From: Pseudomonadota bacterium
GTDB taxonomy: Bacteria > Myxococcota_A > Polyangia > GCA-2747355
Assembly: GCA_016702545.1 (NCBI GenBank)
Contig: JADJDT010000015.1
Coordinates: 69,744 to 133,743 of the forward strand
DNA length: 64,000 nucleotides
Reading direction: 5' to 3'
The position numbers and the translations under genes were made by a program. Below, one piece after another: positions 4,758-47,335 of this stretch. Below the pieces are notes generated by a model. The model made no database searches. It saw nothing but the letters and a program-made list of their open reading frames with translations, and was not told where the DNA came from. Numbering within the stretch: the stretch's first letter is position 1; each line of letters opens with the position of its first letter.

Positions 4758-6956
4758 GTGTGGTTCTCTCGCGTGTGGGTCGTGCTGCTCGCTGCGGTCG
4801 TGGCGCTGGCCTTCGCGGTGCTGCTGGTGCTGCCGCGCCCGGCCGCACGCCAGCTCTTCAACGCCCACGCCTACAAGCTCGACCTGGTGCAGCATAACGC
4901 ACACCTGCTGCTGAAGGTCGAGGCGCGTGAGGCCATTGACCGCGCCGTAGCGCTGTCGCGTGACCCACGACTGGTCGAAACCCTGGAACTCGCCAGCACC
5001 AAGCAGCGTCCCCCGGACCAACTCCAGGCCAAAGCGCTGGCCACGATCAGCGAGCTGCTGGCACCCCTGCAGCCGGAGAGCCGCCCGGGGCTGATCATCT
5101 TGGTCGACGACCAGGGCAAACAGGTCGCGCGCGTGGGCCCCGGCGCCGAGAAGATCGTTCCGGGACAGCACGGCATTGCCGGCTATCCGCTGGTCGAAGC
5201 GGCGCTGCGCGGCCTGCTCCGTGACGACAGCTGGAGCGTGGAGGGCCACCTCTTCACGATGGCGGCCGCGCCGCTGATCGGGCGCGCGCAGCAGCGCTAT
5301 GTCGGAGCGGTGCTGCTCGGTCAGGAGGTCGACGACGCGTTCGTCCGTCGGCTCCGACAACGCCTGGTCAGCTCGACCGTACCCTTCCTCGCCGCGACCG
5401 AGCTGGCGGTGTTCCTACGCGGCCGCATGATCGCGTCGACCTTCTCCTCGCCCGAGCTATCCCGCCTGCCACTGCAGTTCAGCCAACGCCGTGATCAGAT
5501 GCTGCGCGACGAGCGCTCACCGGCGATCAACATCGGCGAGGGGGCCACCGCGCACGTGGTCGTGATGGCGCCGCTGCAAAGCGAGGCCGCCGCCCACGAC
5601 GCCTTCTACGCGATCGTCGGCCCACCGGCAGCACGCGCGGATCTGGTGCCCGCGTTGGCCGAGCTGCAGCGCTCGGACTTCGAGCTCGCCGAGCTGCTGC
5701 AGGCTGGCGGCGTCTTCGTCGCGCTGCTCGTGCTCGGGCTGCTGCTGCTGCAGCTCGAAGGCGACAGCCCGCTGAACCGCTTGTTGGTCGACGTGCGTCG
5801 CCTCACGCGCACCGATATCCTGCGACTGCCCGATCGCGACCATAACGGCCGACACGGAGAGATCGCGCGGCTGATCAACGAGTACTTCGATCGGCAGACG
5901 AAGCGGCCCGCGGCCGGCGCGGGCGCGTCGGCCAAACGTGCGCCCGCCGGAGCCGCCGCGCTCGAAGGCGCTCACGGCGGCGCGCCGAACGATCGCAGCG
6001 GCGATCTCGCCTTCGATCCAGCCACTGGGGGAGGCCTGTCGCCACTGATGGCTGCGAGCTCGGGGCTGCCGCCGATCCGTGAGCTCGACATCGATCGCGT
6101 GCTCGACGAGGGGCTCGAGGATCCCACCAGTCCGCAGTCGCAGGACAACGGCCTGAGCGCGTTACCGGCGCTCGACGGACCGGGGGTGATGGCCCTCGAC
6201 GGGCCCGGGTTCATGCTGCCGGAGGAGACCGCGGCCGAGAGCGGCACCGCCAGCGTGCTCTCGGAGCAGTTCCTGCTCCTGTCGCACGCCGGTGCACTGT
6301 CGATGCTACAACCGCTAGATCTGCCGCCGCTGCCCGATATGGAGCCCCTCGACGACAAGTTCCCGGCCCCTAGTCTCGGCCCGCTCTCGCCCCAGTTCGC
6401 CGGTCCCGAGCCTGCGCCGGTTACGGGCTCAGCGCCGCCGCCGGGGCATCGGCCGCACTGGGGCCAGCGCGAGCCGACCGGGGCGATGGATCCGATCTCG
6501 ATCGGCCCGATCATCGACCCAGCGGACAAGGCGCACCACGCGGCCCCACCTCGGGCGGCGGCCAGCCCGGCGCTCGCCACCGAGGAGGAAGGCGACACCG
6601 TGATGTCGTCGGTGCCCGAGCAGCTCGCGCGCTCACTCGCCCGCGAGCAACCCGCGGCGACCGAGGCCGGTCACGGTGCCTCCGGCGGGATCGCGCCGCC
6701 CTCGGCTGCCGACGCAGCACCCCGCGCCAGCGAGCCGGAGCTCGAACGGTACTTCCAGCAGGTCTTCAAGGAGTTCATGGCGGTCAAACGCAGCTGCGGC
6801 GAGAACGTCGACAACGTCACCTTCGAGCGCTTCGCACGCAAGCTGCGCGGCAATCGCGACAGCCTGATCCAGCGCTACGGCTGCCACGACGTGCGCTTCA
6901 CGGTCTACGTCAAGGATGGCAAGGCAGCGCTCAAGGCCACGCCGATCCAGCCCTAG
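4758..6956 (+). CDS. membrane protein with a HAMP-like segment, a low-complexity Pro-rich linker and an MXAN_5187-like C-terminal domain
   Basis: In-frame GTG at 4758, 11 nt after AAGGAG, followed by a TM helix (VWVVLLAAVVALAFAVLLVL). The C-terminal ~70 aa (ELERYFQQVFKEFMAVKRSCGENVDNVTFERF...) is recalled as a myxobacterial domain family. The TAG stop lies inside repeat element 6952..7101. Confidence 0.6.
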   Translation: MWFSRVWVVLLAAVVALAFAVLLVLPRPAARQLFNAHAYKLDLVQHNAHLLLKVEAREAIDRAVALSRDPRLVETLELASTKQRPPDQLQAKALATISELLAPLQPESRPGLIILVDDQGKQVARVGPGAEKIVPGQHGIAGYPLVEAALRGLLRDDSWSVEGHLFTMAAAPLIGRAQQRYVGAVLLGQEVDDAFVRRLRQRLVSSTVPFLAATELAVFLRGRMIASTFSSPELSRLPLQFSQRRDQMLRDERSPAINIGEGATAHVVVMAPLQSEAAAHDAFYAIVGPPAARADLVPALAELQRSDFELAELLQAGGVFVALLVLGLLLLQLEGDSPLNRLLVDVRRLTRTDILRLPDRDHNGRHGEIARLINEYFDRQTKRPAAGAGASAKRAPAGAAALEGAHGGAPNDRSGDLAFDPATGGGLSPLMAASSGLPPIRELDIDRVLDEGLEDPTSPQSQDNGLSALPALDGPGVMALDGPGFMLPEETAAESGTASVLSEQFLLLSHAGALSMLQPLDLPPLPDMEPLDDKFPAPSLGPLSPQFAGPEPAPVTGSAPPPGHRPHWGQREPTGAMDPISIGPIIDPADKAHHAAPPRAAASPALATEEEGDTVMSSVPEQLARSLAREQPAATEAGHGASGGIAPPSAADAAPRASEPELERYFQQVFKEFMAVKRSCGENVDNVTFERFARKLRGNRDSLIQRYGCHDVRFTVYVKDGKAALKATPIQP

Positions 6957-7101
6957 GAGCCTGTCGGGAAATTGCTGCGCCACCCGATCGCGGCGTTGCG
7001 GCTGTGCTCCGGTGCTCACGTACCAGCCCGTACGTTCCGCTCCGGTGCTCGCCGCGCCTTGCGCTCGGGCGGCTCGCGACATTTCCCGACAGGCTCCTAG
7101 G
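6952..7101 (-). repeat. palindromic intergenic element, copy 1 (core in reverse orientation)
   Basis: Perfect 21-nt terminal arms, CCTAGGAGCCTGTCGGGAAAT ... ATTTCCCGACAGGCTCCTAGG. The core matches the copies at 25160, 33814 and 45099 when reverse-complemented. Confidence 0.9.
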
Positions 7102-7193
7102 CCGCTCGACGGGCGCCCAGACCTGCGCTCGAGCCGTGCCTTCGACCGCGGACTCGCCTGCAGGGCGGGCCAGCGCCGGACGCGCGACAGGGC

Positions 7194-8528: not shown

Positions 8529-8586
8529 CGCTGGCCCCTCCCCTTTTCGATCACCGTCCGCTCGCGACGTGAGCCTGTCGGCTCGT

Positions 8587-8638
8587 CTAGCCCGAAAACA
8601 AGACGCCTTGCGCCAAGGCGCGCTTGTTTTCGGGCTAG
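8587..8638. repeat. 52-nt near-perfect palindrome (short relative of the element family)
   Basis: CTAGCCCGAAAACAAG..CGCCTTGCGCCAAGGCG..CTTGTTTTCGGGCTAG. It contains the family core motif CAAGGCGCG. GAGCCTGTCGG just upstream matches the arm of copy 1. The right arm contains the TAG stop of ORF 8635. Confidence 0.8.
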
Positions 8639-9147
8639 CGCCCCGTGGGCACCCGCTTCCGCTGTGCCGCCGAATCCCCCGCGCGCACCCGCAGGTCGTC
8701 CAGTCGGCGCTCGTCGATCAGCTCCAGCCGCCGGCGTGCCGCGCGCTCTTGACGCTCCCGATGCCGTTCGAAGGCGCGTAGCTCGGACTGCGCAGCAGCC
8801 AGCGCCCGTTGCGCCTGCTCCTCACGCGAGCGCGCGGCGGCGCATTCGCGGCCAGCCACCACCGCACGGTCCGCCCATCCCTGCAGCTCGCGTTCGAGCC
8901 GCTCACGGTAGCACTGCTCCGCCACCAGCGCCGCCGCCGACCGCGGAGGCTCCCGCGCCGCCGTCACACGCGCCGCCAGAGCGGTCTCCGCGTCGTCACG
9001 GCCGCGCTCGACGGTGGCCAGACTCTCGGCGGCTCGCGCGAGCTCCGCGGCGGCTTCGACGAGCCGATGCTGCGCCGCCGCGACCCCGCACTGCTTGAGC
9101 TGGATCAACGCCTGCAGCGCACCTGCCGACCGCTCCACGATGGGCAC
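8635..9147 (-). CDS. coiled-coil hypothetical protein (FliJ/YscO-like composition)
   Basis: C-terminal 170 aa of ORF 8635..9897, counted from GTG 9147. It is Ala/Glu/Arg-rich with a heptad-like pattern. The start is uncertain. Confidence 0.4.
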   Translation of the reverse strand: MPIVERSAGALQALIQLKQCGVAAAQHRLVEAAAELARAAESLATVERGRDDAETALAARVTAAREPPRSAAALVAEQCYRERLERELQGWADRAVVAGRECAAARSREEQAQRALAAAQSELRAFERHRERQERAARRRLELIDERRLDDLRVRAGDSAAQRKRVPTGR

Positions 9148-9242
9148 CGCGTTCCCGCGCCGCAGCCGCCAGCGCCCGGCGCTACGCCCAACTCTCGCAG
9201 TGAACGAAGGGGCCTGGCAAGCGGGCTGTTCCCGGCCTCGGG

Positions 9243-9707
9243 TCAGCGCCCCGCCTGCTGCGCGGTGCGACGCGCGCAGCGGGGCTTGCGATACGCGATC
9301 CACGCCTGTCCTGCCGTGCCCAGCAGGGCCGCGGTCACGGCCGCCACACCCAGCGCTCCCGCGGGTCCCCAGGCCGCGATCAGCGACAACCCCAGCAGGG
9401 CGAGCAAGGTCGCGGCCCGGCCGGCGCGCGGCGCCCGTCCCGCCAGCGTGGACAAGGCGCCGAACAGCGCCGCCAGCGCCGCGGCACCGAGCCCCAGACG
9501 GCAAGCCCGTAGCTGCGCCGCCGACAGCGCGGCGGGGCCATGCAAGGCCGCGGGTGGTGCCGCCGCGCCGGGGCTCAGCCGATCGACCCCGACCGGCTGC
9601 CACTGGGCGGGAAGCGGGCGGTAGGCCGCGGCAACTCGATACAGCAAAGCCAAGGGCGCGCTGATCGCGACCACGAAGAGCAGCAGGGCAGCGACGACCC
9701 AGCGCAA
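9243..9707 (-). CDS. hypothetical membrane protein
   Basis: 154 aa with several hydrophobic helices (VVAALLLFVVAISAPLALL; LLALLGLSLIAAW). Confidence 0.45.
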   Translation of the reverse strand: MRWVVAALLLFVVAISAPLALLYRVAAAYRPLPAQWQPVGVDRLSPGAAAPPAALHGPAALSAAQLRACRLGLGAAALAALFGALSTLAGRAPRAGRAATLLALLGLSLIAAWGPAGALGVAAVTAALLGTAGQAWIAYRKPRCARRTAQQAGR

Positions 9708-9844
9708 GGTGCACCTCCGGGGGAAAGGGCTCGGCGCATGATAGCCGGGAAACGTTCGAGCAGCGCGAGCGGGGAGCCGTGCGCGACAGACCGTGCGCGG
9801 CGGGCTGGACAGCGGCCCCCGCTCTGCGCGAACGTAGCGAGCGC

Positions 9845-10366
9845 ATGTGTCGCCCGCGAAGCATCGTCGGCTGTGTGGCGCTCCTCGTCGCCGGCACCTG
9901 GAGCCTGATCTGGGGCGCCTACGCGCTGACCATGGCGCCCGTCGCGAGCGGTGTGTCGGCGATGAGCCAGGAGGCGCTGGCCCTGACCGCCGAGGTGATC
10001 GCCGAGGCCGAGCAAGCGCCTGCCCAAGCGGATCACGGCCCAGCGCGCGGACCGCTCGCGCCGAGCGAAGCGCCCTCCGGCGGCGCGGGGCTCGACCGAC
10101 GACTCGCCGGCTGCGGTGCGGCCCTGCTCGGCAGCGGGGCCCTCGCGCTGGTCGCCGCGCTGCTGCGCCTGAGGCGCCGCGCCCGCCGCTTGGTCTGGGC
10201 GGCAGCAGCCGCTGGCGTCGCCGCCGAGCTGGTATGGTTGGCGGTCATCGGCACCTGGATCGTCCCTGCGCTTGGCCGCGCTGGGCTCTACCTGGTCGGC
10301 GGCGCCCTCGCCGCGCCGGCCGGCGCGGGCCGCCCCACGACGGACCCGGGCAAGGCGGCGGATTGA
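9845..10366 (+). CDS. hypothetical membrane protein
   Basis: ATG at 9845 (MCRPRSIVGCVALLVAGTW...) and 3-4 predicted TM segments. Confidence 0.45.
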   Translation: MCRPRSIVGCVALLVAGTWSLIWGAYALTMAPVASGVSAMSQEALALTAEVIAEAEQAPAQADHGPARGPLAPSEAPSGGAGLDRRLAGCGAALLGSGALALVAALLRLRRRARRLVWAAAAAGVAAELVWLAVIGTWIVPALGRAGLYLVGGALAAPAGAGRPTTDPGKAAD

Positions 10367-10388
10367 GGGCTCGGCTGCGACCCTCGTG

Positions 10389-10424
10389 GCGCTCAGGTGT
10401 CGATCAGCGCTCAGGTGTCGATCA
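10389..10424. repeat. 18-bp perfect tandem duplication (x2) spanning the Rieske gene stop codon
   Basis: GCGCTCAGGTGTCGATCA occurs twice in tandem. Each copy carries an in-frame TGA on the minus strand. Confidence 0.9.
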
Positions 10425-10896: not shown

Positions 10897-10946
10897 CGGG
10901 GTCCGCAGCCCGACCCTGGGCGCAGCGCGAGTCTACCCGAGCACCG

Positions 10947-11032
10947 CGCTCGAACCCAACCCGCGCTCAAACCCAACCCCCGCTCAAACCCAACCCCCGC
11001 TCAAACCCAACCCCCGCTCAAACCCAACCCCG
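10947..11032. repeat. ~18-bp tandem repeat array (about 5 units, CGCTCAAACCCAACCCCC)
   Basis: Direct reading. One degenerate unit, three perfect units and one partial unit. The last unit encodes the radC C-terminus and stop codon. Confidence 0.9.
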
Positions 11033-11698
11033 GTCAGCGAAGCTGACGAAGCTGCCATCCCCCACCACCAGGTGATCGAGCAGCGGGATGCCCAGCAGGC
11101 GGCCCCCATGGGCCAACCGGTCGGTGAGCTGGCGATCGGCTTCGCTGGGCTCGGGATCGCCGCTCGGGTGGTTGTGCGCCACGATGCCGGCCGCCGCCTG
11201 TTCGCGCAGCAGCGGCGCGAAGACCTCGCGCGGATGCACCTCGACGCCGGTCACGCTGCCCTGCGCGACCTGCGTCAGCGACAGCAGGCGGTTCTTGGCA
11301 TCGAGCGCCAGCACGACGAAGACCTCGTGGCGCAGACCGAGCAGGCGGCCGCCGACGCAGCGATAGACGGCCTCACTGCGCGTCAGGGGCTCGCCGCGGC
11401 GGGTCCACGAGCCCGCAGGCGCCGGCTCAGCTCGCCCACCGCCAGCAGGGGCACAGGCGCGCGCCTGGCCGATGCCCCGCACCTGTATCAGCTCACCGAC
11501 GCGGCAGCGCTCGAGGGCCTCGATCCCGCCGAGCCGACCGAGCAGCTCACGGCAGGTCTCTACCACCCCTCCCGACGCGCGCGTGGTGGCGCCGACCACC
11601 AGGGCGAGCAGCTCGGCGTCGCTCAGACCGGCAGCCCCACCAGCGAGCAGCCGCTCGCGTGGGCGCTCGGAAGCGGGCCACTGCAGGATCGCCGACAT
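11018..11698 (-). CDS. radC: RadC-family JAB-domain protein
   Basis: ATG at 11698 gives MSAILQWPASERPRERLL.., the typical RadC N-terminus. JAMM motif HNHPSGDPEPSEAD. Confidence 0.85.
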   Translation of the reverse strand: MSAILQWPASERPRERLLAGGAAGLSDAELLALVVGATTRASGGVVETCRELLGRLGGIEALERCRVGELIQVRGIGQARACAPAGGGRAEPAPAGSWTRRGEPLTRSEAVYRCVGGRLLGLRHEVFVVLALDAKNRLLSLTQVAQGSVTGVEVHPREVFAPLLREQAAAGIVAHNHPSGDPEPSEADRQLTDRLAHGGRLLGIPLLDHLVVGDGSFVSFADRGWV

Positions 11699-11838
11699 GC
11701 GTGACCGGATCAGCACGGCCCGTGCCATCCGGCTGTGGCCCTGAATACGCGGCCTTCTCGGACCAGGTGAGGACGGCGCCCGGTATCCGGTCCGAAGACC
11801 GGACGCGAGCGCCGAATGCTCGCTCCCTGGGAAGCTCC

Positions 11839-12764: not shown

Positions 12765-12837
12765 TGACCCCGGAAGGAATCGAACCTTCAACAAACGGAT
12801 TAAGAGTCCGCTGCTCTGCCAGTTGAGCTACGGGGCC
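12765..12837 (-). tRNA. tRNA-Lys (anticodon CTT)
   Basis: Hand-folded 73-nt cloverleaf: acceptor GGCCCCG/CGGGGTC, D stem GCTC/GAGC, anticodon loop CTCTTAA, T arm GAAGG-TTCGATT-CCTTC. CCA is not encoded. Confidence 0.9.
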
Positions 12838-12855
12838 GCGCCGAACTGCAGCAGG

Positions 12856-12885
12856 CGTATAGCTTCGGGCCGTGGTGGGTGTCAA
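12856..12885 (-). promoter_or_regulatory. sigma70-like promoter for tRNA-Lys (TTGACA - 18 nt - TATACG)
   Basis: The minus strand reads TTGACA (12885-12880) and TATACG (12861-12856), about 19 nt upstream of the tRNA 5' end. Confidence 0.5.
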
Positions 12886-12888
12886 GAC

Positions 12889-18242: not shown

Positions 18243-18248
18243 CCGCCC

Positions 18249-25117: not shown

Positions 25118-25159
25118 AGCGCCGCGGCCGCGACGTGCCGACCCTGGCCCGCGCGTCTC

Positions 25160-25292
25160 AAGAGGTGTCCAGGAATCGTCGCGAGCAGGCCCAGCGCAAG
25201 CGCGGGCCAGCGGAACGACGGGCTGGTACGTAGCATCGGGCGCAGCGGTAACGCAGCGGTCGGGCCGCGCAGCAGATTCATGGACACCTCTT
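25160..25292 (+). repeat. palindromic intergenic element, copy 2
   Basis: Arms AAGAGGTGTCCAGGAATC ... GATTCATGGACACCTCTT. The core is shared with copies 1, 3 and 4. It abuts the stop codon of the TPR gene (25292-25294). Confidence 0.85.
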
Positions 25293-29464: not shown

Positions 29465-29910
29465 GGCAGGGCCAGCACCGGCAACGGAACCCCACCGATC
29501 ACGCGCTGCTCGACCAGCTGCCAGCCGTCGGCGCCATCGACCCAGCGCTGGGCGACCAGCGTCGCGCCCAGCGAGCCGCTGCGCAGTGCGTACCACTCGA
29601 CCTGCACCAGGGCGCGCGCCGTCCCCGCGCCGAGCACCTCCACGCGGGTCAGAGTCACCTCGACGATGCGCAGCTCGCGCCAGGCCGCACCCCGCGCCAA
29701 CAAGCGCTGGCGCGGCCTTTCACCGAGATAGGAGGCCAGCCCGCCGAGGTCGCCCCAGCGCAGCGCGTGCTGATAGGCCTCGACGGCGTCCTCGAGCAAG
29801 GCGCGCCGATCGCCCGCACAGGCGGCCAGCAGCGCGGCCAGCAACGCGCCGCAGCGGACGACCCCCAAGGGCCCCCTGCGCGACCCGACACGCCGCTCAG
29901 CGCCCCCCAT
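29461..29910 (-). CDS. hypothetical lipoprotein
   Basis: 149 aa with lipobox-like LLAAC. Translationally coupled to the TPR gene. Confidence 0.55.
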   Translation of the reverse strand: MGGAERRVGSRRGPLGVVRCGALLAALLAACAGDRRALLEDAVEAYQHALRWGDLGGLASYLGERPRQRLLARGAAWRELRIVEVTLTRVEVLGAGTARALVQVEWYALRSGSLGATLVAQRWVDGADGWQLVEQRVIGGVPLPVLALP

Positions 29911-31453
29911 CGCCCTTCCTCGCGTTCCCCGCCGTCATGGGCGGTGGCCCTTGCGGCCTCCCTCCACGCAGCAGCTGAACGTCTTGCCGACCGAGCTCCC
30001 CGAGCACGACGAGCGCCACACCGTAGGTCAACAGCACCAACCCGCATTCGATCAGGGTCAAGAACCGCGACCGCTCGGGCAACCACGCGCCGACGACGGC
30101 CGCCAGTCCCCAGGCCACGACCACGCGCCACACGGTGCCCCAGGGCAGCGCGGCACCAAGCGTGCGCCGGAGCAGCAGCGTCGCGATCCCGAGGCCCGCC
30201 AACATCGCCAGCGCCGTGGCCGCCGCCGCCACCTCCAAGGCCGTGCTCGGCGAGGCCGACCGCGGCACTGCGAACGCGTTCGCGGCCACCAGCAGCAGCA
30301 GGGTGGCCAGCGTCGTGACGATTACGGCACGCGTGTGCCCCGCGCCGTTCAGAATCGTGTTGCTGACCGTCAAGAGCGAAAAGCACACCATCCCCGCCGC
30401 CAACCACCGCAGCGCCGGCCCGCCGGCGCGATAGATCGCAGGGTAGAGCACCGTGATCACCGCCTCCGGGTTGGCCATCAAGACCGCCGCCAGGCCGGCG
30501 ACGAAGATCAGCGACAAGCGCAGCGTGCGGTGGATATAGAGGCGAGTGGCGGCATGGTCGGCGGCGAAGGTCGAGCGCGAGACCAAGGGGAAGACGACGA
30601 AGGTCACCGCGAGGATCAGCTGGTAGGGGATGAAGGCCAACGACTGCGCCGTGCCGTAGTACCCCGCGGCCGCCGAGGCGGCGGCCATCGCGGCCGCGGT
30701 GTCGAGCGTGCGCGCGGCGAGAGCGGTGGCGAAGCGCTTCAGCAGCAGCAGGTCGGCGCGCATCACCAGGTTCAGCGCCAAAGTCGACGCGAAGAGCTCG
30801 AGCATCAGCCGCCACAGCCGACCGCTCGCTAGCGCCTCGCCGTCTCGCACCGGCCAGCCAACACGCCACAGCGCCGCGACCAGGATCAGGGCTGCCGCTC
30901 CCACGAACCCGCCCACCGCCCCCGCTACGCCCCACCCTACCCCGGCTCCGCCGATGATCAACAGCGCCCGCAGGGTGGCGAAGCTCGCGTCGAAGGCGGC
31001 CTGCTCGCGGAAGCGGCGCAGGCCGTTGAGGGAGCCGATGAAGACCGCGTAGAAGGCGTAGCAGACGATGATCCCCGCCGCGAGCGCGTACCAGCGCGCG
31101 AGGCGAGGATCCCGTTCCCAGGCGGCAATCCACGGCGCCGCCGCCGCGAAGAGCGCCGCTGCTCCGCCGCCCAGCACCACCTGCACGCGTAGCGCCGCGC
31201 GCTGGACCGCAGCGGCGCTCACGTCGCCCTGCGCCGTGAACTTGCTGACGCCCTGGATCGTCGCGGTGACGATCACGTTGTTGACCACGGAGACCAGTCC
31301 GATCACCAGCAGATACTCGCCCCAGGCCACCGGCGAGCCCAGCAGCCGCGGCAGCGCGAAGTAGATCGCGTAGCCCGCGATGATGAAGTAGATTTTGGCC
31401 AGGCCGATGTAGACCACACCGCGACCGGCGCTGACGGCTGAAGCATCGCTCAT
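29897..31453 (-). CDS. polysaccharide biosynthesis / oligosaccharide flippase family protein (MOP superfamily)
   Basis: 518 aa with about 14 hydrophobic segments. The N-terminus is typical of Wzx/MurJ-like flippases. Confidence 0.65.
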   Translation of the reverse strand: MSDASAVSAGRGVVYIGLAKIYFIIAGYAIYFALPRLLGSPVAWGEYLLVIGLVSVVNNVIVTATIQGVSKFTAQGDVSAAAVQRAALRVQVVLGGGAAALFAAAAPWIAAWERDPRLARWYALAAGIIVCYAFYAVFIGSLNGLRRFREQAAFDASFATLRALLIIGGAGVGWGVAGAVGGFVGAAALILVAALWRVGWPVRDGEALASGRLWRLMLELFASTLALNLVMRADLLLLKRFATALAARTLDTAAAMAAASAAAGYYGTAQSLAFIPYQLILAVTFVVFPLVSRSTFAADHAATRLYIHRTLRLSLIFVAGLAAVLMANPEAVITVLYPAIYRAGGPALRWLAAGMVCFSLLTVSNTILNGAGHTRAVIVTTLATLLLLVAANAFAVPRSASPSTALEVAAAATALAMLAGLGIATLLLRRTLGAALPWGTVWRVVVAWGLAAVVGAWLPERSRFLTLIECGLVLLTYGVALVVLGELGRQDVQLLRGGRPQGPPPMTAGNARKGDGGR

Positions 31454-31479: not shown

Positions 31480-31646
31480 CTAAGTACAGCGTACCGGAAG
31501 GAAGTGACCACCTCGCTCGTTCTGGACGCCGATGGGCAGCGTTGCGCCTCCTGGAAATACCACGAGTATTTCGGCGTCGGCGCGCCTTGCCATCGGCGCC
31601 CAGCCCTTCGCGGGCTGATCACTTTCTTTCGGTACGCTGTACTAAG
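31480..31646 (-). repeat. palindromic intergenic element, divergent copy (in a divergent promoter region)
   Basis: ~30-nt arms CTAAGTACAGCGTACCGGAAGGAAGTGACC ... GATCACTTTCTTTCGGTACGCTGTACTAAG with 4 mismatches. The interior retains GCGTTGCG and CGCGCCTTGC blocks and a central hairpin, GAAATAC-CACGA-GTATTTC. Confidence 0.7.
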
Positions 31647-33813: not shown

Positions 33814-33960
33814 CTAGATGTGCTCGGCCGAAGTTGTGAGCCGTTCGAGCGCAAGGCGCGGCGAGCACCGGAGCGGAGCGTACGGGCTGGTACGTGAGCA
33901 CCGGAGCGCAGCCGTAACGCAGCGATCGGGCGGATCACGACTTCCGCCGAGCACATCTAG
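33814..33960 (+). repeat. palindromic intergenic element, copy 3
   Basis: Arms CTAGATGTGCTCGGCCGAAGT ... ACTTCCGCCGAGCACATCTAG with 1 mismatch. The core is conserved. The right arm contains the dusA TAG stop (33957-33959). Confidence 0.9.
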
Positions 33961-34955
33961 GTCTCGTCCAGCACCGCTGCCGGCAGCGCCAGCAGCAGCG
34001 CGCGCAGCCGCTCCGTCGCCGTGGCGCCATCGCTGGCGCTGAGCGCGGTACGCCAGCGGCGCGCGCCCGGCCGACCCGTCAGCAGTCCCAGCAGGTGCCG
34101 CGTGACCCGCGTGCCCGGCTGACCGGACTGCTCCAGCGCGGCCACATAGGGCAGCAGGGCCTCGATCACCGCGCGGCGCGTCGGCACGGGGTCGGTGCCG
34201 GCGAAGAACAGCCGATCGGCGCGCGCCAGCAGGTAGGGATCGTCGTAGGCGGCGCGGCCGATCATCGCGCCGTCGACGTGCGCCAGCTGCGACTGCGCCT
34301 CGGCGAGGGTGCGGAGGCCGCCGTTGAGTACGATGCAAAGCCGCGGGAAGTCGCGTTTGAGCTGATAGACCACGTCGTAGCGCAGCGGTGGCACGGTGCG
34401 ATTGGCCTTCGGGCTGAGCCCGTCGAGCAGTGCCAGCCGCGCGTGGACGTCGAAGCGCGCGCAGCCGGCCTCGGCCACAGTCGCCACGAAGCGCGTCAGC
34501 GCGTCGTAGCCCTCGTGCCCACTGATGCCGATGCGGTGCTTGACGGTCACCGGCACGCCGACGGCGCCCCGCAGCGCCGCCACGCACTCGGCGACGAGCG
34601 CGGGCTCGGCCATCAAGCAGGCGCCGAAACGGCCCTGCTGCACCCGCTCGCTCGGGCAGCCGACGTTGAGGTTGATCTCGTCGTAGCCTAGCGCCGCTCC
34701 CAGGCGCGCCGCCGCGGCGAGCTCGGCGGGCCGGTCGCCGCCGAGCTGGAGCACCAGTGGACCTTCGATCGCGCTGAAGCCCAGCAGCCGCTCGACGTCG
34801 CCGTGAAGCACGGCTCGGGCCGTCACCATTTCACTGTAGAGCAGCGTGCGGCGCGTGATCTGCCGCAGCACGTAGCGAAAGTGCCGATCGGTGCGATCCA
34901 TCATCGGCGCCACGCTCAGCCGGTACGGCGGCGGCGCGGCGCTCGACAACGACAC
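33957..34955 (-). CDS. dusA: tRNA dihydrouridine synthase DusA
   Basis: LSVAPMMDRTDRHFRY, NLNVGCPS and VTVKHRIG motifs. The GTG at 34955, directly after the upstream stop codon, is taken as the start (uncertain). Confidence 0.85.
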   Translation of the reverse strand: MSLSSAAPPPYRLSVAPMMDRTDRHFRYVLRQITRRTLLYSEMVTARAVLHGDVERLLGFSAIEGPLVLQLGGDRPAELAAAARLGAALGYDEINLNVGCPSERVQQGRFGACLMAEPALVAECVAALRGAVGVPVTVKHRIGISGHEGYDALTRFVATVAEAGCARFDVHARLALLDGLSPKANRTVPPLRYDVVYQLKRDFPRLCIVLNGGLRTLAEAQSQLAHVDGAMIGRAAYDDPYLLARADRLFFAGTDPVPTRRAVIEALLPYVAALEQSGQPGTRVTRHLLGLLTGRPGARRWRTALSASDGATATERLRALLLALPAAVLDET

Positions 34956-34957
34956 GC

Positions 34958-36334
34958 TCAACGGCGCGCCTCCCGCTCGAAGGGCTGCCGTTGGCCCAGC
35001 TCGTGAGCCAGCGCGATGCGCGCCAGGTCGCGCGCATCGCGGCTGCGCGTGAGGTCGATGCGCGCCTCGAGCCGTCGCTGCGTCGCGTCGAGCAGATCGA
35101 GCTGCGTCGCGGTGCCGGCCTCGTAGCGCGACGCCATCTCGTCGACGATCACGGCCGCCAGCGCGGCCGCCTTGTCGGCGCTGATCAGTCCCGCCTCGGC
35201 CGAGAGCAGGTCGGCGCGCAACTGCACCACCGTCTCGGCGATGCCGCGCGCCAGCTCGGCGCGAGCCGCCTGACCCTCGGCGATGCGCGCCTCGGCGCTG
35301 CGCCGATTGGCGTAGCGCAGACCGCCCTCGTAGAGCGGCAGCCCGAGCGTAGCGACGATGGCCAGCGTATCGCGGCGATCGGCAAAGCCGGCCACGTTCT
35401 GCCAGCGGTAGAGCAGGCTGAGATCGAGGGTCGGGAAGAACGACCACGTTACCGCCTTGCGCGCCTGCTCCGCCGCCGCGATGTCCAGGCGCAGGGCCGC
35501 GACGTCGGCGCGCCGATTGAGCGCCGTCCGCAGCATCGCGGACTCGTCGGCGGGCACGGCCGCCGGCTCGGGCGGGCGACGCAGCGCGATCGGCTCGTTC
35601 AGACCGATCAAGATCGCCAGGCGACGCTGCGCTGCCAGCAATGCGTTGCGCTGTCGGCGCAGCGCCTGCTCATCCTGCACCAGCACCAGCTCCGCGCGTA
35701 CCACGTCCGAACGCAGCACCCGTCCGACCTCGAGCCTGGCGCGCACGACCGCGAGGTTCTGCTGATCGACGCCCACCTTCTCCTCCAGCGCCGTGGCCAC
35801 CTCGCTCGCGCCGAGCCCGGCGTAGTAGGCCTCGGCCACGCGCAACAGGTAGTCCTGGCGCCGGCGCACGACGCGCAGCTCCGCCGCGGCGACGCCCTTG
35901 CGCGCGACCCCGAGCTGCTGGTAGGCGGGACCGCGAAAGAGCGGCACGCCGGCCTGCAACGCGAGGCCGAGCTGATGGCGGCGCTGAATCACGATCGGAT
36001 CGCTGGCGGGCGACCCCGCCGGGGCGAAGGCGCCGAGGTCGAAGGACACCACCGGATCATTCAGCGTGTAGCTGCCGCTCAGGTTCACGGTGGGCTTGAG
36101 CTGCGACCAGGCGCGGCCCACCTCGGCGGTGGCGCCGCGCACCCGCGCCTGCATCTGCTCCAGCGTCGGATTGTCGCGCTGCGCCAGCCCGTAGGCCTCC
36201 TCCAGCGTGACGAGACGCGCACCCACGGGCGTCCCGAGCGCCGCGTCGGCACCGGCCCTCGCCGACGCCGCCAGCGCCAGCAGCGCCACCAGCAGCGGCA
36301 CCCTCACGGCGCCCTCGATCGATCGTCTGCGCAT
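34958..36334 (-). CDS. TolC-family outer membrane efflux protein
   Basis: ATG at 36334, preceded by GGAGGA. Signal peptide, and a duplicated coiled-coil/beta-barrel repeat pattern typical of outer membrane factor (OMF) proteins. Confidence 0.8.
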   Translation of the reverse strand: MRRRSIEGAVRVPLLVALLALAASARAGADAALGTPVGARLVTLEEAYGLAQRDNPTLEQMQARVRGATAEVGRAWSQLKPTVNLSGSYTLNDPVVSFDLGAFAPAGSPASDPIVIQRRHQLGLALQAGVPLFRGPAYQQLGVARKGVAAAELRVVRRRQDYLLRVAEAYYAGLGASEVATALEEKVGVDQQNLAVVRARLEVGRVLRSDVVRAELVLVQDEQALRRQRNALLAAQRRLAILIGLNEPIALRRPPEPAAVPADESAMLRTALNRRADVAALRLDIAAAEQARKAVTWSFFPTLDLSLLYRWQNVAGFADRRDTLAIVATLGLPLYEGGLRYANRRSAEARIAEGQAARAELARGIAETVVQLRADLLSAEAGLISADKAAALAAVIVDEMASRYEAGTATQLDLLDATQRRLEARIDLTRSRDARDLARIALAHELGQRQPFEREARR

Positions 36335-36510
36335 CGCTTCCTCCTCGGTACGCGGCCAAGAAAGCACGCCCGCTGCCGCTGGACAAGCGCTGCCCACGTG
36401 GTATGCAGCGCCGGGGTCACGGATGGCGGCCCCGTCAGGGTCGCGAGCCTCGAGCGGCTCAGGGCCTAGCACCCCTCCGCGGGGTGCGACGCCGAATGAG
36501 AGTAGTTTCC

Positions 36511-42035: not shown

Positions 42036-42114
42036 CGGGTCGATAGTACCACCCGCGACGCCATCACCCGGCCCGGCTTGCTCGCGCCGGCACCTGCCGC
42101 TATCGTCCTCGGCG

Positions 42115-42771: not shown

Positions 42772-42778
42772 GTGGCCA

Positions 42779-44485
42779 ATGTCGGCGGCCCCCACCAGCG
42801 CCACGCGCCGCGCCATCAGCCGGGCCACGAGCGCCTTGCCGCTGCTGGCCCTGCTCGCCGTGACGGCAATGCTCTACGCCCGCGTGGGCGACTATCCCTT
42901 CCTGCACTGGGACGACGGCGTGTACGTCAGCGAGCATCCAGCGCTGCGACGGATCGCGGCCGGGGAAGGCGGGGCCTTCACCGAGCTGCTCTCGCCACGC
43001 GAGGCGCTCGCCGGCCGCCGCTGGGAGTACCTCCCGTTGCGCGACCTGAGCTACGGGCTCGATGCCTGGCGCGCCGGCCTCGCCCCCCGTGCCTTCCACC
43101 TGACGAACCTCGGGCTGCACCTGCTCGCCGTGCTGCTGGTCTGGAGCCTCGCGCGCGCGCTCGGGCTCGGCGCGGCCCCCGCGCTGGCGGCAGCGGCCCT
43201 CTTCGCACTCCACCCCCTGGCGGTCGAGCCCACGGCCTGGATCAGCGCGCGCAAGGACCTGCTCTACACGGCGCTCGCCCTGGCCGCGCTGCTCGCGCTG
43301 CTCCAGGCGCGCCACCGCCGGGGGCGATCGCGCGCGTTCGCCTTCGGCGCCTTCATCGCTGCCACCCTCGCCGCGCTCGCCAGCAAGGGCCCGGCCGTGA
43401 TCGTGCCGCTGCTGGCCGCGGTGCTGGTCTGGCGCTGTTTTCCCGCGGAGCAGCGCTCCAGCGCGCGCTGGCCGCTCTGGGGCCTCGGCGCGGTCGCCGC
43501 GGGCTGGGCGCTGCTCAGCCTGGTGATCGGCCGGCGCAGCGGGATTCTGAGCAGCGGCGCGACCAGCCTCGGCGAGCGGCTCGGCAGCGTGCTCGGCGCA
43601 CCAGCTCACGCGCTGGCGCAGCTCGCGTGGCCCGTGGCGCTGTCGCCGAGCTACCGCCATCCGGCGGGATCGGTCTGGGCCCAACCGGAACCGTGGGTCG
43701 GGCTCGCGCTGGCGGTCGTGGTCGCGGCCCTGGTCGTGGTGGCGCACCGACGCCCCGCGCCTTCGCCTGCCCCACCGGCCGCGGGGGCGCTGGCGCTCTG
43801 TGCCTGGCTGGCCCTGCTCCCGACGGCGGGCCTAATAAACGTGGCGCAGCCGCGGGCCGATCGCTTCCTCTACTTGCCCTTGGCTTGCGCCGCCCTGGCG
43901 ATCGGCGCGCTGCTGCAAGCGGCCGCGCCCCGATTGCGCCGCGGCCTGGCGCTCGCCACCGCCGCGGCCCTTCTGCTCTGCGCGGCGCAAACCCAGCGCT
44001 ACCTCGCGGTCTGGCGCCACGACCTCAAGCTCTGGACCCATGTGGTGGCGGCCGACCCCGATCATCCGCTCGCCAACGGCCAGCTCGCGGCGCTGGCGAT
44101 CGAACAGGGCCAGCTGGTGCTGGCCAAGCGGCTGCTCGACCGCGCGCTGGCCCACGGCCCGCGCCTCGCGCCGAGCTGGTCCAATCTCGGCCGCTGGTGG
44201 CAGCTACAGGCTGGACCGGGCGCGCTGCGGCCCGGCGACGGGCGCCGCGCCGACCAGCTCGCCCAGGCCGAACGAGCGTTCGGGCGCGCGCTCGCCCTCG
44301 ACCCGCGCTACGCGCCGCCCTACCTGGAGCTGGCGCGGCTGGCGCAACAACGCGGCGATGCCCGCCGAGCCGAGGCGCTGCTCCGCCGCGCGCTCACGCT
44401 GCCGCGCTGTCCTGCCACGGCTCGGCTGCAGCTCCAGGCCTTGCGCAACGCCACGCCGGCGCTCAGCCCCCGGCCAGCGCGCTGA
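42779..44485 (+). CDS. polytopic membrane protein with C-terminal TPR repeats (TMTC/PMT_2-like architecture)
   Basis: YPFLHWDDGVYV N-terminal motif and about 10 TM segments, followed by TPR units. Confidence 0.6.
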   Translation: MSAAPTSATRRAISRATSALPLLALLAVTAMLYARVGDYPFLHWDDGVYVSEHPALRRIAAGEGGAFTELLSPREALAGRRWEYLPLRDLSYGLDAWRAGLAPRAFHLTNLGLHLLAVLLVWSLARALGLGAAPALAAAALFALHPLAVEPTAWISARKDLLYTALALAALLALLQARHRRGRSRAFAFGAFIAATLAALASKGPAVIVPLLAAVLVWRCFPAEQRSSARWPLWGLGAVAAGWALLSLVIGRRSGILSSGATSLGERLGSVLGAPAHALAQLAWPVALSPSYRHPAGSVWAQPEPWVGLALAVVVAALVVVAHRRPAPSPAPPAAGALALCAWLALLPTAGLINVAQPRADRFLYLPLACAALAIGALLQAAAPRLRRGLALATAAALLLCAAQTQRYLAVWRHDLKLWTHVVAADPDHPLANGQLAALAIEQGQLVLAKRLLDRALAHGPRLAPSWSNLGRWWQLQAGPGALRPGDGRRADQLAQAERAFGRALALDPRYAPPYLELARLAQQRGDARRAEALLRRALTLPRCPATARLQLQALRNATPALSPRPAR

Positions 44486-44924
44486 AGGCGGCCCGCAGCA
44501 TCGCGGGCTTGGTGACCACACCGACCAGACGCTCGTCGGCGACCACCGGCACGATGCTGATGTGACGCTCGACCATCAGCGTGGCCACCTCCTCGAGGGG
44601 CGTCTCCGGGCGGACGGAGACCGGATCGGTGGTCATGATGTCGGCGACCTGGGCCCCGCTGATCTTGTCGAGCTCGCGCTCCGCGCGCCAGGGGCTGTCG
44701 AGCGGCAGCACGCCGTCGAGCAGCACGAAGAAGGTCGGCAGGTGCAGCGCCTTCTCCTGGTAGATGAGGTCCATCGAGGTCACGACCCCCGCCAGGGCGC
44801 CATCCTCGGCGACGACACACACGCCATCGAGGCGCTCCTCGAGCAGCAGGCGCGCCAGCTCCTGCACGGACAGGGTCGGGCTGACGCTGCGCGCCTCCTG
44901 CATCACCTCGCCGGCTGTCTGCAT
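44463..44924 (-). CDS. CBS domain pair protein
   Basis: 153 aa containing two CBS-like units (...VCVVAEDGALAGVVTSMDL..., ...SIVPVVADERLVGVVTKPAML). Confidence 0.8.
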   Translation of the reverse strand: MQTAGEVMQEARSVSPTLSVQELARLLLEERLDGVCVVAEDGALAGVVTSMDLIYQEKALHLPTFFVLLDGVLPLDSPWRAERELDKISGAQVADIMTTDPVSVRPETPLEEVATLMVERHISIVPVVADERLVGVVTKPAMLRAAFSALAGG

Positions 44925-45098
44925 CGCTCACCTCCCTCGGGTCAGCATACGCCCCTGCGCCCGCACGACCAAGGCCGAGGGCCGCCGCTTGCGCGCCCTC
45001 GGCGCTGTGCGACAGTGCGCGCGGGAGCAGCGCCACGGATGATCCGTCTCGAGCCCCGCGCATGAAGGCCTCCCCGGCAGCGCCTGGCCACCCGCTCA

Positions 45099-45242
45099 AG
45101 AGGTGTCCAGAAATCGTCGCGAGCAGGCCCGAGCGCAAGGCGCCGCGAGCACCGAAGCGGAAGGTACGGGCTGGTACGTGAGCATCGGAGCGCAGCGGCA
45201 ACGCAGCGGTCGGGCCGCGCAGCAGATTTTTGGACACCTCTT
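45099..45242 (+). repeat. palindromic intergenic element, copy 4
   Basis: Arms AAGAGGTGTCCAGAAATC ... GATTTTTGGACACCTCTT with one G.T pair. The core is conserved. It overlaps the 5' end of the HDAC ORF. Confidence 0.9.
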
Positions 45243-47145
45243 CGGCGGCCGCGCCGAGCCGCTGCCCGAAGCGCTGGTCGGGGCGCGAGCGATCGGTCGC
45301 CGTGGCCTCGCCCGGGCGGCGAGCTGGGCGCGCGACCTCGGCCTGCCGCTGCCTCCGCCCGCGCGCCTGGTCTTCGATGAGGACTACGTCGGGCCGACGG
45401 CCGAGAGCGACAGCCGCCACGCCTTCGACGGCCGCCGGCCGCTGCGGATCGTCGAGCGCCTGCGTCGCTCCGGCGTGCTCAGCCGCACCCAGCTCCTGCG
45501 GCCCAGCGTGCCCAGCGCGGCCGATCTGGCGCGGGTCCACCCAGCGGCCTTTCTGGCCGAGCTCCGCCAACCCGAGCGCCTGGCGGCCCTGCTGGCGCTG
45601 CCGGTCCACACCATCCAGCTCCAGGACGACCCGCTGCTGCCCTTCCTGCTGCAGAGCGGCGGCACGATGCTCGCGCTCGAGCACGCGCTGCGCCACGCGC
45701 TGCCGGTCTTCAACCTCGGGGGCGGCTTTCATCACGCGCAGCGCGACCGCGCCGAGGGCTTCTGCCCGCTCAACGATCTCGCGCTGGCGATCGAGCGCGT
45801 GCGCGCGCTCCGCTTGGCGCGGCGCATCCTGGTCGTCGACCTGGACTACCACCACGGCAACGGCACGGCGTTGATCTACGCCGAGGACGAGGAGGTCTTC
45901 ACCCTCTCGCTGCATGGCCAAGCGTGGGCGCAGCTCGCGGGCAAGCGCCACAACCTCGACCTCCAGCTCCCGGCGGGCACCGGCGACGGCGACTATCTGG
46001 CGGCGCTGCGCGAAACGCTGCCGCCGGTCCTGCGCCGGTTTCGCCCGCAGGCCGCGATCTACCTCGCCGGCGCCGACGTCAGCGCGGCAGATCAGCTCGG
46101 CGACTTCCGGCTCTCGGAGGACGGCGTGCTCGAGCGAGACCTCTACGTGGCCCGCTGCCTGCGGGCGGCCCACGTGCCCTTCGCCGTGGTGCTGGGCGGA
46201 GGCTACGGGCCCTTCGCCTGGACCCTGCCCTACAACTTCATCTACAGCGTGCTGACGGGCACGCGCATTCCCTTGGCGTTGCGCCCGAGCAACGTCGCCG
46301 CTCAATACGCTCGCGTCCGCACGGCGCTCGGCCCGATCGAGCTGCGACAGGGCACCCCGGCGCTGGCGGCCAGCGATGGCGACGCCCTGCTGGGCCTCGA
46401 GCGCGGCGAGTCGTCGCTCTTCATGGGCACCTACTCGCGCGAGGGCCTGGTCACCGTGCTCGAGCGCTATGGCTTCCTCGAGCTGCTGCGTGAGCGCGGC
46501 TTCGCCGCACCACTGATCTCGATCGACACCGAGGACCCCGACCGGCAGGTCTTGCGAATCCATGATGGCCAGCCCGACCCGGCCCACCTGCTGATCGAGC
46601 TCGTGACCCGCTACCGCGCGCTGCGCCGGCCCACCAGCGCCGCCTTCGCCCCCGACGGGCTGCGCCTGCTGGCGATCGAGTGGCTCTGCATGCAGAACCC
46701 CTGCGCCGACTTCACCCTCGATCGCCCGCAACTCCCCGATCAGCGCTTCCCCGGGCTGGGCCTCGGCCCCTGGATGCTCGAGCTGCTGCGGCAGATGGCG
46801 CTGCGGCTGCGCTGTGCCGGGCTGATGAACTGCCCGCGCCACTACCACAACGCGCGCGTCTACGCGCGGGCGATGCGCTTCTTCGACCCCGTGACCGAGG
46901 GCCGCTTTCGCGCCCTGCAGGCGCTGCTCGAGCCGCTCCCGCTGCTCGAGGCGATCGACGCCGTCGCCCGCGGGGCGGTCGTCGACGAAGAGGGTCTCCC
47001 CTGGCACTGGACCTGCTTCGAGGGTGCGCCTCAGGTGCTCGCGACCGACCAGGCGCTCAGCAGCTACCTTGCGAGCGCGGCCTATCAGCGCGCGGTGAGC
47101 GAGGCCCGCGCGGGCCAGCGGCTCCGACTGCAACTCGGCGGGTGA
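45103..47145 (+). CDS. histone deacetylase-family (arginase/deacetylase fold) protein with an uncharacterised ~280-aa C-terminal extension
   Basis: GGGFHHA, CPLNDLA and DLDYHHGNGT motifs. The start is unresolved: the only in-frame ATG/GTG codons upstream of the conserved domain (GTG 45103 and a GTG near 45178) lie inside the repeat element. Confidence 0.75.
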   Translation: MSRNRREQARAQGAASTEAEGTGWYVSIGAQRQRSGRAAQQIFGHLFGGRAEPLPEALVGARAIGRRGLARAASWARDLGLPLPPPARLVFDEDYVGPTAESDSRHAFDGRRPLRIVERLRRSGVLSRTQLLRPSVPSAADLARVHPAAFLAELRQPERLAALLALPVHTIQLQDDPLLPFLLQSGGTMLALEHALRHALPVFNLGGGFHHAQRDRAEGFCPLNDLALAIERVRALRLARRILVVDLDYHHGNGTALIYAEDEEVFTLSLHGQAWAQLAGKRHNLDLQLPAGTGDGDYLAALRETLPPVLRRFRPQAAIYLAGADVSAADQLGDFRLSEDGVLERDLYVARCLRAAHVPFAVVLGGGYGPFAWTLPYNFIYSVLTGTRIPLALRPSNVAAQYARVRTALGPIELRQGTPALAASDGDALLGLERGESSLFMGTYSREGLVTVLERYGFLELLRERGFAAPLISIDTEDPDRQVLRIHDGQPDPAHLLIELVTRYRALRRPTSAAFAPDGLRLLAIEWLCMQNPCADFTLDRPQLPDQRFPGLGLGPWMLELLRQMALRLRCAGLMNCPRHYHNARVYARAMRFFDPVTEGRFRALQALLEPLPLLEAIDAVARGAVVDEEGLPWHWTCFEGAPQVLATDQALSSYLASAAYQRAVSEARAGQRLRLQLGG

Positions 47146-47175
47146 AGGCCGACGCAGGCGTGGGCGGGCGGTGCG

Positions 47176-47335
47176 TTAGGAGGTTGGCGGAAATAGCTGG
47201 CCAGGTTGGCGGTCGAGGCGCCCGTGCGGCAAGGCGCGAGGAGGGCGCGTACCGCCTGTACGCAACCGACGAGCAACGCAGACGCGCGGAGGACGGCCGC
47301 CCAGCTGGTAAGATAATTTCGGCCAGCCTCCTCAG
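47176..47335 (+). repeat. palindromic intergenic element, divergent copy
   Basis: Arms TTAGGAGGTTGGCGGAAAT ... ATTTCGGCCAGCCTCCTCA with 2 mismatches and 1 wobble pair. The interior keeps CAAGGCGCG, a GTAC..GTACG centre and AACGCAG. The right arm contains the TGA stop of ORF 47332. Confidence 0.65.

Follow-up and report, generated by a model that had tools for sequence, protein, structure and literature searches.

Bacterial MITEs (miniature inverted-repeat transposable elements) are recognised by a small set of hallmarks, namely terminal inverted repeats (TIRs), a terminal TA, duplication of the target and the formation of long RNA stem-loops (PMC2229807; PMC3184786). Two of the described families, ERIC and Correia, influence mRNA stability (PMC2229807; PMC3184786), and their effects on neighbouring mRNAs, which depend on structure and on orientation (as found for ERIC), involve RNase III and RNase E (PMC2229807). 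Another family, RUP in Streptococcus pneumoniae, is a TIR MITE that occupies TA sites, comprises subfamilies and, by inference, is moved in trans by an insertion sequence (IS) with matching TIRs (PMC2229807). Here, we analyse a family of palindromic intergenic elements found in a 64,000-nucleotide stretch of an uncultured bacterium (positions 69,744 to 133,743 of contig JADJDT010000015.1, assembly GCA_016702545.1), hereafter the window, which a preliminary description made from the sequence had likened to REP/Correia-type MITEs or to a structured RNA. Our reading, to which we give a probability of roughly 70%, is that these elements are a superfamily of non-autonomous TIR transposons, i.e. MITEs, which expanded in one uncultured lineage of Myxococcota.

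The likeness to the Correia/NEMIS elements of Neisseria and the ERIC/IRU elements of enterobacteria is extensive, since these are likewise ~100-170 bp long with TIRs, a terminal TA and a target duplication, likewise form one long imperfect hairpin, lie in intergenic DNA near gene ends and come in long and short forms. Unlike Correia and ERIC, with which they have no sequence similarity, the elements of the window are GC-rich rather than AT-rich, combine a conserved centre with at least six unrelated TIR types and some 3-bp (TNA) duplications, insert exactly at stop codons that they rebuild, with a 22:3 orientation bias, and carry hypervariable loops on a nearly invariant scaffold. RUP duplicates TA only and has a candidate IS (IS630-Spn1), whereas here one divergent copy (c4, see below) and one whole type (B) have 3-bp duplications and no partner IS is known. 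REP/BIME and REPIN sequences are, like our elements, abundant GC-rich extragenic palindromes often situated after convergent genes, and REPINs form long hairpins; however, REPs do not have the TIR-plus-duplication design, their termini are conserved and they are linked to a Y1 transposase, whereas here TIRs and TA/TNA duplications surround a conserved centre, and no RAYT or Y1 transposase is found among the open reading frames (ORFs) of the window. The REP-like part of the preliminary description therefore fails and Correia/ERIC-type MITEs are the right comparison, while its preference for a MITE-like family over decayed transposon debris is supported. Short, non-coding and multi-copy, with TIRs and a target duplication visible when filled and empty sites are compared, the family constitutes a MITE superfamily not described before, similar in kind to Correia/ERIC and IS5-like in its target duplication, and no counterpart of it is described in the literature searched.

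All seven palindromes initially noticed in the window were found again. Six of them (c1 and c3 to c7) are detected by a covariance model, which was built from 17 short copies and recovers all known copies in the 305 kb on which it was run, and together with a mini-palindrome, c2, they lie 2-17 kb apart in both orientations. Four belong to the core family. The first, c1 (6956-7097 from TIR to TIR, 6954-7099 with flanks; minus strand), is a short A-type copy of 142 nt with TIR GGAGCCTGTCGGGAAAT, bounded by TA at 6954-6955 and TA at 7098-7099, for which the model gives 171 bits (minus strand) as opposed to 49 (plus strand). Between the convergent glgC and TPR genes lies c3 (25161-25291, with flanks 25158-25294; plus strand), a short B-type copy with internal deletions, TCA on either side and a score of 91 bits. 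A short C-type copy, c5 (33817-33957, with flanks 33815-33959; plus strand), has TIR GATGTGCTCGGCCGAAGT, TA on either side and 150 bits, and an orthologous filled copy exists in L035 (metagenome loci are numbered L throughout), which is ~95% identical to the window. The last of the four, c6 (45099-45241, with flanks 45096-45244; plus strand), is again a short B-type copy, flanked by TCA and TCG and scoring 160 bits.

The two other model-detected copies are divergent. Flanked by TAA on both sides and carrying TIR GTACAGCGTACCGG, c4 (31484-31642, with flanks 31481-31645) is a superfamily member whose central hairpin differs from that of the core family; the model detects it on the minus strand (39 bits, E ~1e-7), which reverses the orientation it had been given. 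It occupies the promoter region between two divergent genes. The ATG of one, the polysaccharide-biosynthesis gene 29897-31453 (minus strand), is 27 nt away, with c4 on its upstream side, and the other, a DUF2505 gene on the plus strand, starts just downstream of c4, so the promoter region differs between the window strain and L035, in which c4 is missing. The more distant c7 (47179-47331, with flanks 47176-47334; plus strand) has TIR GGAGGTTGGCGGAAAT, retains GCAAGGCGCG and AACGCAG boxes, is flanked by TTA and TCA, and gets a weak plus-strand score (16.9 bits, E 0.12). As for c2 (8590-8635, with flanks 8588-8637), it is a 46-bp palindrome with TIR GCCCGAAAACAAG, flanked by TA within CTAG and centred on a palindrome of the family box GCAAGGCGC; its right CTAG overlaps the stop of ORF 8635-9897 (minus strand), an uncertain gene. 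The covariance model does not pick it up, and c2 is a separate mini-element of related design that stands outside the core family, not the short family copy it had been taken for. Mini-palindromes of this type, which read CTAG-NCCGAAAACAA...TTGTTTTCGGN-CTAG and measure ~46-52 bp, also abut C- and A-type copies in L026 (~3700-3770) and L038 (~1985-2010), where the flanking TA is shared; each insertion recreates the target site at its ends, which makes tandem arrays possible.

The elements are mobile MITEs with TA/TNA target duplication. Across 38 non-redundant copies the junctions are consistent, reading C-TA-[TIR..TIR]-TA-G in types A, C and D and C-TCA-[..]-TCA-G in type B, i.e. TA within CTAG/YTAR is duplicated by A, C and D, and TNA within CTNAG by B, c4 and c7. 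Filled and empty sites were paired by blastn of metagenome contigs against the window, which gave three close pairs. The cleanest is that of c4, where the empty site in L035 (...GCATC-TAA-GCTGCC...) faces the filled site of the window (...GCATC-TAA-[ GTACAGCG...CGCTGTAC ]-TAA-GCTGCC...), a 3-bp TAA duplication in CTAAG. The second pair concerns the TGA stop (365-367, minus strand) of an Mrp/ApbC-like gene (365-1453, minus strand), which is empty in the window and occupied by an A-type element in L012 (~95% identical). Read on the gene strand, the window has AAC GCC TGA GCGCC and L012 has AAC GCT TA[GGAGCC...GGCTCC]TG GGCGCC, where TA+G restores the stop, ...N-A-stop is encoded in either case, and the two extra flank bases amount, by length arithmetic, to a 2-bp duplication. 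In the third pair, L035 holds a 160-nt, c4-like element ('type G'; 3848-3978 by the covariance model, minus strand, 31 bits) between the stop of an OEP gene (34958-36472, minus strand) and the start of the Dus gene, at a place that is empty in the window (34947-34954). More distant genomes agree: the convergent order of glgC and the TPR gene is kept in L044 and L045 (~75% protein identity), neither of which has an element there, with a gap of 52 and 92 nt, respectively, against 174 nt in the window with c3. The C-termini of the TPR protein are flush across the window, L044 and L045 (..AELQR, ..AELR and ..RDLRR, each followed by the stop), and GCGC-TGA-GG in L044 corresponds to GCGC-TGA-[B element]-TGA-GACG in the window.

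This duplication pattern, TA in CTAG/YTAR and TNA in CTNAG, which is seen in the flanks of the 38 copies and in the CTAAG of c4, resembles that of the IS5 family. A DDE transposase supplied in trans would make the staggered cut, and IS5-family elements would be its likeliest source because the TA/TNA target pattern is typical of them. Tourist MITEs have TAA/TTA flanks, and in target pattern the elements resemble the IS5 family and its eukaryotic relatives (PIF/Harbinger with Tourist MITEs), although neither a transposase gene nor a full-length IS with the TIRs of the elements was found here. CTAG has been reported as an IS5 target duplication (PMC10379815), and a 3-nt insertion site is recognised in the IS1031 group (PMC2516522). 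Dependence on IS630/Tc1-mariner transposases was rejected, since strict TA duplication is contradicted by the TAA of c4 and the TCA flanks of type B; taken by themselves, types A, C and D would be compatible with it.

The elements are 131-295 nt long and fold as a single long imperfect hairpin (-72 to -105 kcal/mol for short forms) in which three layers can be distinguished: a TIR pair of 17-21 bp, a shared long-hairpin scaffold and two optional internal hairpin modules. The scaffold includes the GCAAGGCGC box, a GCAACGC box and a central hairpin between GAGCACCGGAGCG repeats. The common core reported earlier for c1, c3, c5 and c6 is confirmed, including the GAGCACCGGAGCG direct repeat, with deletions in c3, and the central motif CGTACGGGCTGGTACG occurs five times in the window with up to three mismatches, four times in precisely these copies (shuffle expectation 0.85; five occurrences reached in 0/100 shuffles). 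The modules, Lmod (net +51 nt, one GNNA-capped hairpin) and Rmod (+72 nt, three hairpins), are present or absent independently of each other in several subfamilies. Both lengths are multiples of three and some frames are open through long forms (e.g. in L016 and L024). A coding role was nevertheless rejected, since the candidate start codon and frame vary between subfamilies and variation ignores codon positions; six-frame translations of one long and one short element found no match among 5.8 billion proteins.

The arms had been described as different between copies while co-varying within each copy. The matched pairing stands; the copy-specificity does not, for the arms are subfamily-wide types. 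Flank alignment resolves at least six discrete multi-copy TIR types on one common core, namely A (GGAGCCTGTCGGGAAAT), B (AGAGGTGTCCAGAAATC), C (GATGTGCTCGGCCGAAGT), D (AACAGGGTCGCGTGGAG) and two further types, E and F, and already within the window c3 and c6 have the identical arm type (B). The TIRs (17-21 bp, 88-100% complementary) are at the extreme ends; between types, similarity falls off sharply at their inner edge, and the inner arm (GTCGCGAGCC.. / ..GGCGCAGCA) remains related. Two copies are chimeric with ends that are not complementary: one in L010 (1490-1755) has a C-type 5' arm and an A-type 3' arm, the other, in L041 (1-266), joins A with B arms. These chimeric arms and the independent assortment of the modules indicate that copies recombine with one another, and it is probably through such recombination that several TIR pairs came to reside on one core. 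The two chimeras possibly also mark genome rearrangements accompanying inter-copy recombination. A further peculiarity is seen in D-type copies of five loci (L009, L011, L019, L025 and L042), in which a second, subterminal TIR copy lies at the 5' end, ~28 nt further out than the inner copy (..TAAACAGAGTCGCCTTGAG..TCAAACAGGGTCGCGTGGAG..), making the 5' arm longer than the 3' arm.

The family is abundant in a narrow range of organisms. A 22-mer core pattern searched against JGI metagenome contigs gave 37 exact matches on 36 contigs, mostly from sample Ga0268298, which contains a relative ~95-96% identical to the window, and E-type copies came from another sample series (Ga0194111, Ga0194113 and Ga0194125). 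In the covariance model, the score of clear copies is 91-173 bits for one strand and ~43-50 for the other. A decayed, 5'-truncated, A-like copy with Lmod (L008 4012-4148, 53 bits), which shares its contig with an intact C-type copy, reveals that the family includes older, eroding insertions. By contrast, neither the covariance model nor inverted-repeat scans found a copy in ~95 kb from relatives with 74-90% protein identity (L044-L049), syntenic regions included, which identifies the family as a lineage-restricted expansion. A scan of 185,579 species-representative genomes for the core 19-mer gave seven matches, all of them chance occurrences inside coding sequence, so that neither the family nor the host genome is in that collection, and blastn of PLSDB plasmids with the element and its arms returned chance-level matches only. 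The Rfam search suggested in the preliminary description, which did not recognise the elements as described ones, gave no matching family: five long-form loci had no match in Rfam 15 at E <=1, and at gathering thresholds the sole match in the whole window was a tRNA gene (12765-12837, minus strand). At least six recovered contigs terminate within a copy (L013, L017, L022, L028, L039 and L041).

Three features that the preliminary description overlooked, even though its MITE-like family and strand-specific pairing hold, are the insertion polymorphism presented above, the precision of insertion at stop codons and a bias in orientation. In 22 non-redundant copies, an ORF on the opposite strand with high GC content at third codon positions (GC3) stops exactly at the forward-frame 3' junction; over the 38 copies, the stop is at the 3' junction in 22, at the 5' junction in three, at both in two and at neither in 11 (p = 1.6e-4), and it is formed by TA+G, TA+A or a TGA flank. 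Four copies of the window are at stop codons via their 3' junction: c1 (TAG at 6954-6956, ending gene 4473-6956 on the plus strand), c3 (TGA of the TPR gene, 25292-29596, minus strand), c5 (TAG of the Dus gene, ORF 33957-35447, minus strand) and c7 (TGA of ORF 47332-48357, minus strand). Away from stop codons, c6 lies between a divergent CBS-domain gene (44463-44924, minus strand) and a histone-deacetylase-family gene (plus strand). The window has 32 CTAG and 108 CTNAG target sites, 92 of which are in coding sequence while 10 are unoccupied sites at stop codons. Landing on stop codons probably follows from the scarcity of TA/TNA in DNA of 72% GC, the loss of intragenic insertions and the restoration of the stop by a purine-first TIR, which leaves the protein unchanged so that the insertion is tolerated. 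TGA followed by AG, the same as in the B-type junction (TGA/AGAGG), ends 8 of the 34 predicted genes of the window (e.g. glgC, comEC and acrB), which may be due to chance, to a favoured termination context or to remnants of old insertions.

The orientation of the copies is harder to account for. In TNA-type copies, the forward strand always reads T-pyrimidine-A, including in c4 and c6, which are away from stops, and such an asymmetric target could account for the orientation of type B; type C, however, is oriented 8:0 despite its palindromic CTAG target. Replication-strand effects were rejected as a cause, with a negative GC skew in the flanks of 19 of the 38 copies and no link to orientation. 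The better-folding strand is antisense to the abutting gene, whose mRNA carries a weaker, pyrimidine-loop version of the hairpin. Possible origins of the bias are (i) counter-selection, in the 3' untranslated region of the gene, of the stabler hairpin or of some particular motif, (ii) a strand-specific step in transposition and (iii) a function of a forward-strand antisense transcript.

Pairing is conserved to a degree that calls for a careful reading. In the model alignment, the share of pairing cells is 97.3% (shuffles, 83.4%), both partners have changed in 20 of the 43 pairs (103 cells) and the covariation score is 0.398 against 0.138 when shuffled (0/500 reach it) and at most 0.065 with slid partners, all counted on an alignment itself fitted to the covariance model. 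Since any TIR transposon has matched ends, a large covariation score is not in itself proof that a transcript is under selection, and the signal here mostly reflects differences between TIR types rather than stepwise compensatory evolution of one helix. Finer evidence favours a folding constraint. Copy-specific changes at consensus Watson-Crick pairs of the arms comprise 13 G·U against 2 A·C on the forward strand (p = 0.007), plus five other mismatches; four compensatory doubles are seen (GC to AT in L043, GC to TA in L015+, AT to CG in L016 and AT to GC in L031), and six copy-specific changes turn a consensus mismatch back to Watson-Crick. Symmetric scoring of the arms finds G·T in 57 cells and A·C in 11. 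A count over the whole hairpin (39 G·U against 52 A·C, apparently no bias) was set aside for the noise that force-aligning the inner, non-helical part introduces, and transcription-associated deamination was rejected as the source of the wobbles, by reasoning only, as its action on the non-template strand of the abutting gene would leave A·C and not G·U on the forward strand, contrary to observation.

On the forward strand, purines occupy 74% of the unpaired columns, and it is this strand that has the more stable fold in types A, B, C, D and F as well as in c4, type G and c7, by 3-12 kcal/mol in most subfamilies. Between type B and the other types, covariation is seen at two pairs of the core (G-C with C-G, and G-C with A-U). 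Nucleotide diversity (pi) at the loop centres reaches 0.54 in Lmod and 0.44 in Rmod, against 0.024 and 0.023 in the remainder of these modules, where variants are nearly all singletons; in other words, hairpin loops are ~20 times more diverse than the remaining scaffold, the central bases of the GNNA-type and NNA loops varying freely while stems and flanks are nearly invariant. The wobble, compensatory and purine evidence demonstrates a folding constraint on one ('core-forward') strand, as RNA or as single-stranded DNA, and so upholds the earlier claims of pairing kept on one particular strand and of forward-strand G·T wobbles, the latter in the arms. At c1, c5 and c6, we found neither a sigma-70-like promoter (in or beside the copies) nor an intrinsic terminator or U-tract.

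Several of these observations weigh against a MITE family moved in trans. Of the three close pairs, two have an empty site that departs from a plain pre-insertion sequence: at mrp, 3 of 11 nt differ, and at the type G site 7 nt face 11 nt, imperfections that may reflect excision footprints or local divergence. The orientation bias (22 against 3 overall, 8 against 0 in type C) is not predicted by a symmetric DDE mechanism, and the whole scaffold appears constrained (pi 0.023), whereas ordinary MITEs require their TIRs alone. A Pfam scan of the main ORFs of the window turned up no transposase with matching TIRs, and in 198 kb of metagenome loci, the ORFs of which were unscanned for transposases, there is no stand-alone A, B or C TIR, all exact matches being in known core copies. 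Finally, the link to the IS5 family comes solely from the target pattern. Compared to textbook MITEs, the departures are three: a conserved, strand-asymmetric core on many TIR pairs, exact insertion at stop codons with rebuilding, and an orientation bias. Within the MITE reading, the core would also be constrained in its own right, and strand-specific folding may either serve transposition in cis or, by analogy with ERIC and Correia, reflect a host-level effect on neighbouring transcripts.

The same departures invite explanations in which the fold itself is what is selected. The scaffold might be a mobile module, folded on one particular strand (as RNA or as single-stranded DNA), that is selected at every copy and homes to stop codons in a fixed orientation, which we think unlikely; in this cargo reading, which we view with the same reserve, it would be a portable 3'-end/antisense regulator, or a cis-acting or guide-like scaffold of a trans enzyme, for which the TIR sets are alternative vehicles. 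Closely related, and in our opinion doubtful, is the idea of a mobile structured non-coding RNA, in which the scaffold is an RNA gene, its forward transcript functions as an antisense/3'-end regulator or protein scaffold, and the TIRs just disperse it. The strand-specific wobbles (both the 13 against 2 private changes and the 57 against 11 arm cells), the purine-rich unpaired positions, the variable loop centres on near-invariant stems, the core covariation between subfamilies and the greater stability of the forward strand, even in c4, type G and c7, are what such an RNA would leave behind. However, no Rfam family matches, c1, c5 and c6 have no sigma-70-like promoter or intrinsic terminator, the copies have unrelated surroundings, the mRNA of the abutting gene does not contain the forward strand, which runs antisense to that gene, and module stems show conservation more than covariation. 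Moreover, folding of single-stranded DNA explains the same asymmetries. Another alternative is a mobile hairpin of the HUH/Y1 kind (IS200/IS605- or RAYT-like, as for PATEs and REPINs), whose folded strand is cut and, always in one orientation, joined to the 3' side of a short target. Quite improbable in our view, this mechanism would explain at once strand-specific folding, oriented insertion beside TGA/TAG/TAA and the T-pyrimidine-A found on the forward strand of all TNA-type copies, c4 and c6 included; it is at odds with inverted repeats of 17-20 bp that reach the ends, the clean direct TAA duplication at c4, the 2-bp gain in type A, the lack of a Y1 transposase among window ORFs and an orientation independent of local GC skew (19/38). 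To our knowledge, IS200/IS605 elements have neither TIRs nor target duplications. An IS200/IS605-derived PATE was rejected because of the direct TAA duplication and of TIRs that extend to the ends, fixed orientation being the sole common trait.

Explanations that dispense with transposition fare worse. Hairpins evolved in place by the host, as bidirectional terminators or REP-like mRNA stabilisers, would suit the very stable folds and the position of c1, c3, c5 and c7 between convergent genes, right after stops, yet they are contradicted by the filled/empty polymorphism with target duplication between ~95%-identical genomes and by near-identical sequence at dozens of unrelated loci; the missing U-tract, the promoter locations of c4 and c6 and the element-free syntenic relatives point the same way, making this explanation very improbable. 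Integron attC-like recombination sites share with the elements arms that vary with pairing kept and a fixed orientation relative to the upstream gene, the stop codon of which they often overlap. We nonetheless consider their involvement next to negligible, since a conserved centre with variable ends is the reverse of attC, RYYYAAC/GTTRRRY boxes are absent from the termini, the neighbours are syntenic housekeeping genes (glgC, dus, mrp) instead of cassettes, the Pfam scan of the main window ORFs found no integrase, and the elements are 2-17 kb apart in both orientations.

The surroundings of the elements are those of an ordinary chromosome, with a GC content of 67-73% and genes including mrp/apbC, comEC, a GCS2-family gene, glgC, a large TPR protein, dus and an RND efflux operon. 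The nearest named homologues are in Haliangium and in metagenome-assembled genomes labelled 'Deltaproteobacteria/Myxococcales/Polyangia' (~70-78% protein identity), and the host lineage is an uncultured member of the Myxococcota related to Haliangium/Polyangia. Between 8.6 and 13.4 kb, the GC3 coding signal is weak, and a radC-like gene (11018-11728, minus strand) lies inside this segment. The end of the window (52000-64000) is an element-free island of lower GC content (0.67-0.69 against ~0.72) with defence-like genes, all on the minus strand: GmrSD_N (53843-55438), a PLD nuclease (55428-56249), MZB/DUF1998 (56246-57802), a large helicase (58078-61551) and an AAA_15/AAA_21 ATPase (62423-63994), the order of the PLD, DUF1998 and helicase genes being DISARM-like.

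Even if it is merely a MITE family, this superfamily documents a recent, lineage-restricted burst in poorly known, uncultured Polyangia/Haliangium-like Myxococcota, and its TA/TNA target choice combined with a purine-first TIR offers a clean case of stop codons serving as safe landing sites in a high-GC genome. Such repeats are also of practical concern, as they break metagenome assemblies, mediate recombination and can mislead gene callers at gene ends. Its atypical features, i.e. a single scaffold on many TIRs, variable loops and a 22:3 orientation bias, could show whether bacterial MITEs carry selected structured cargo.

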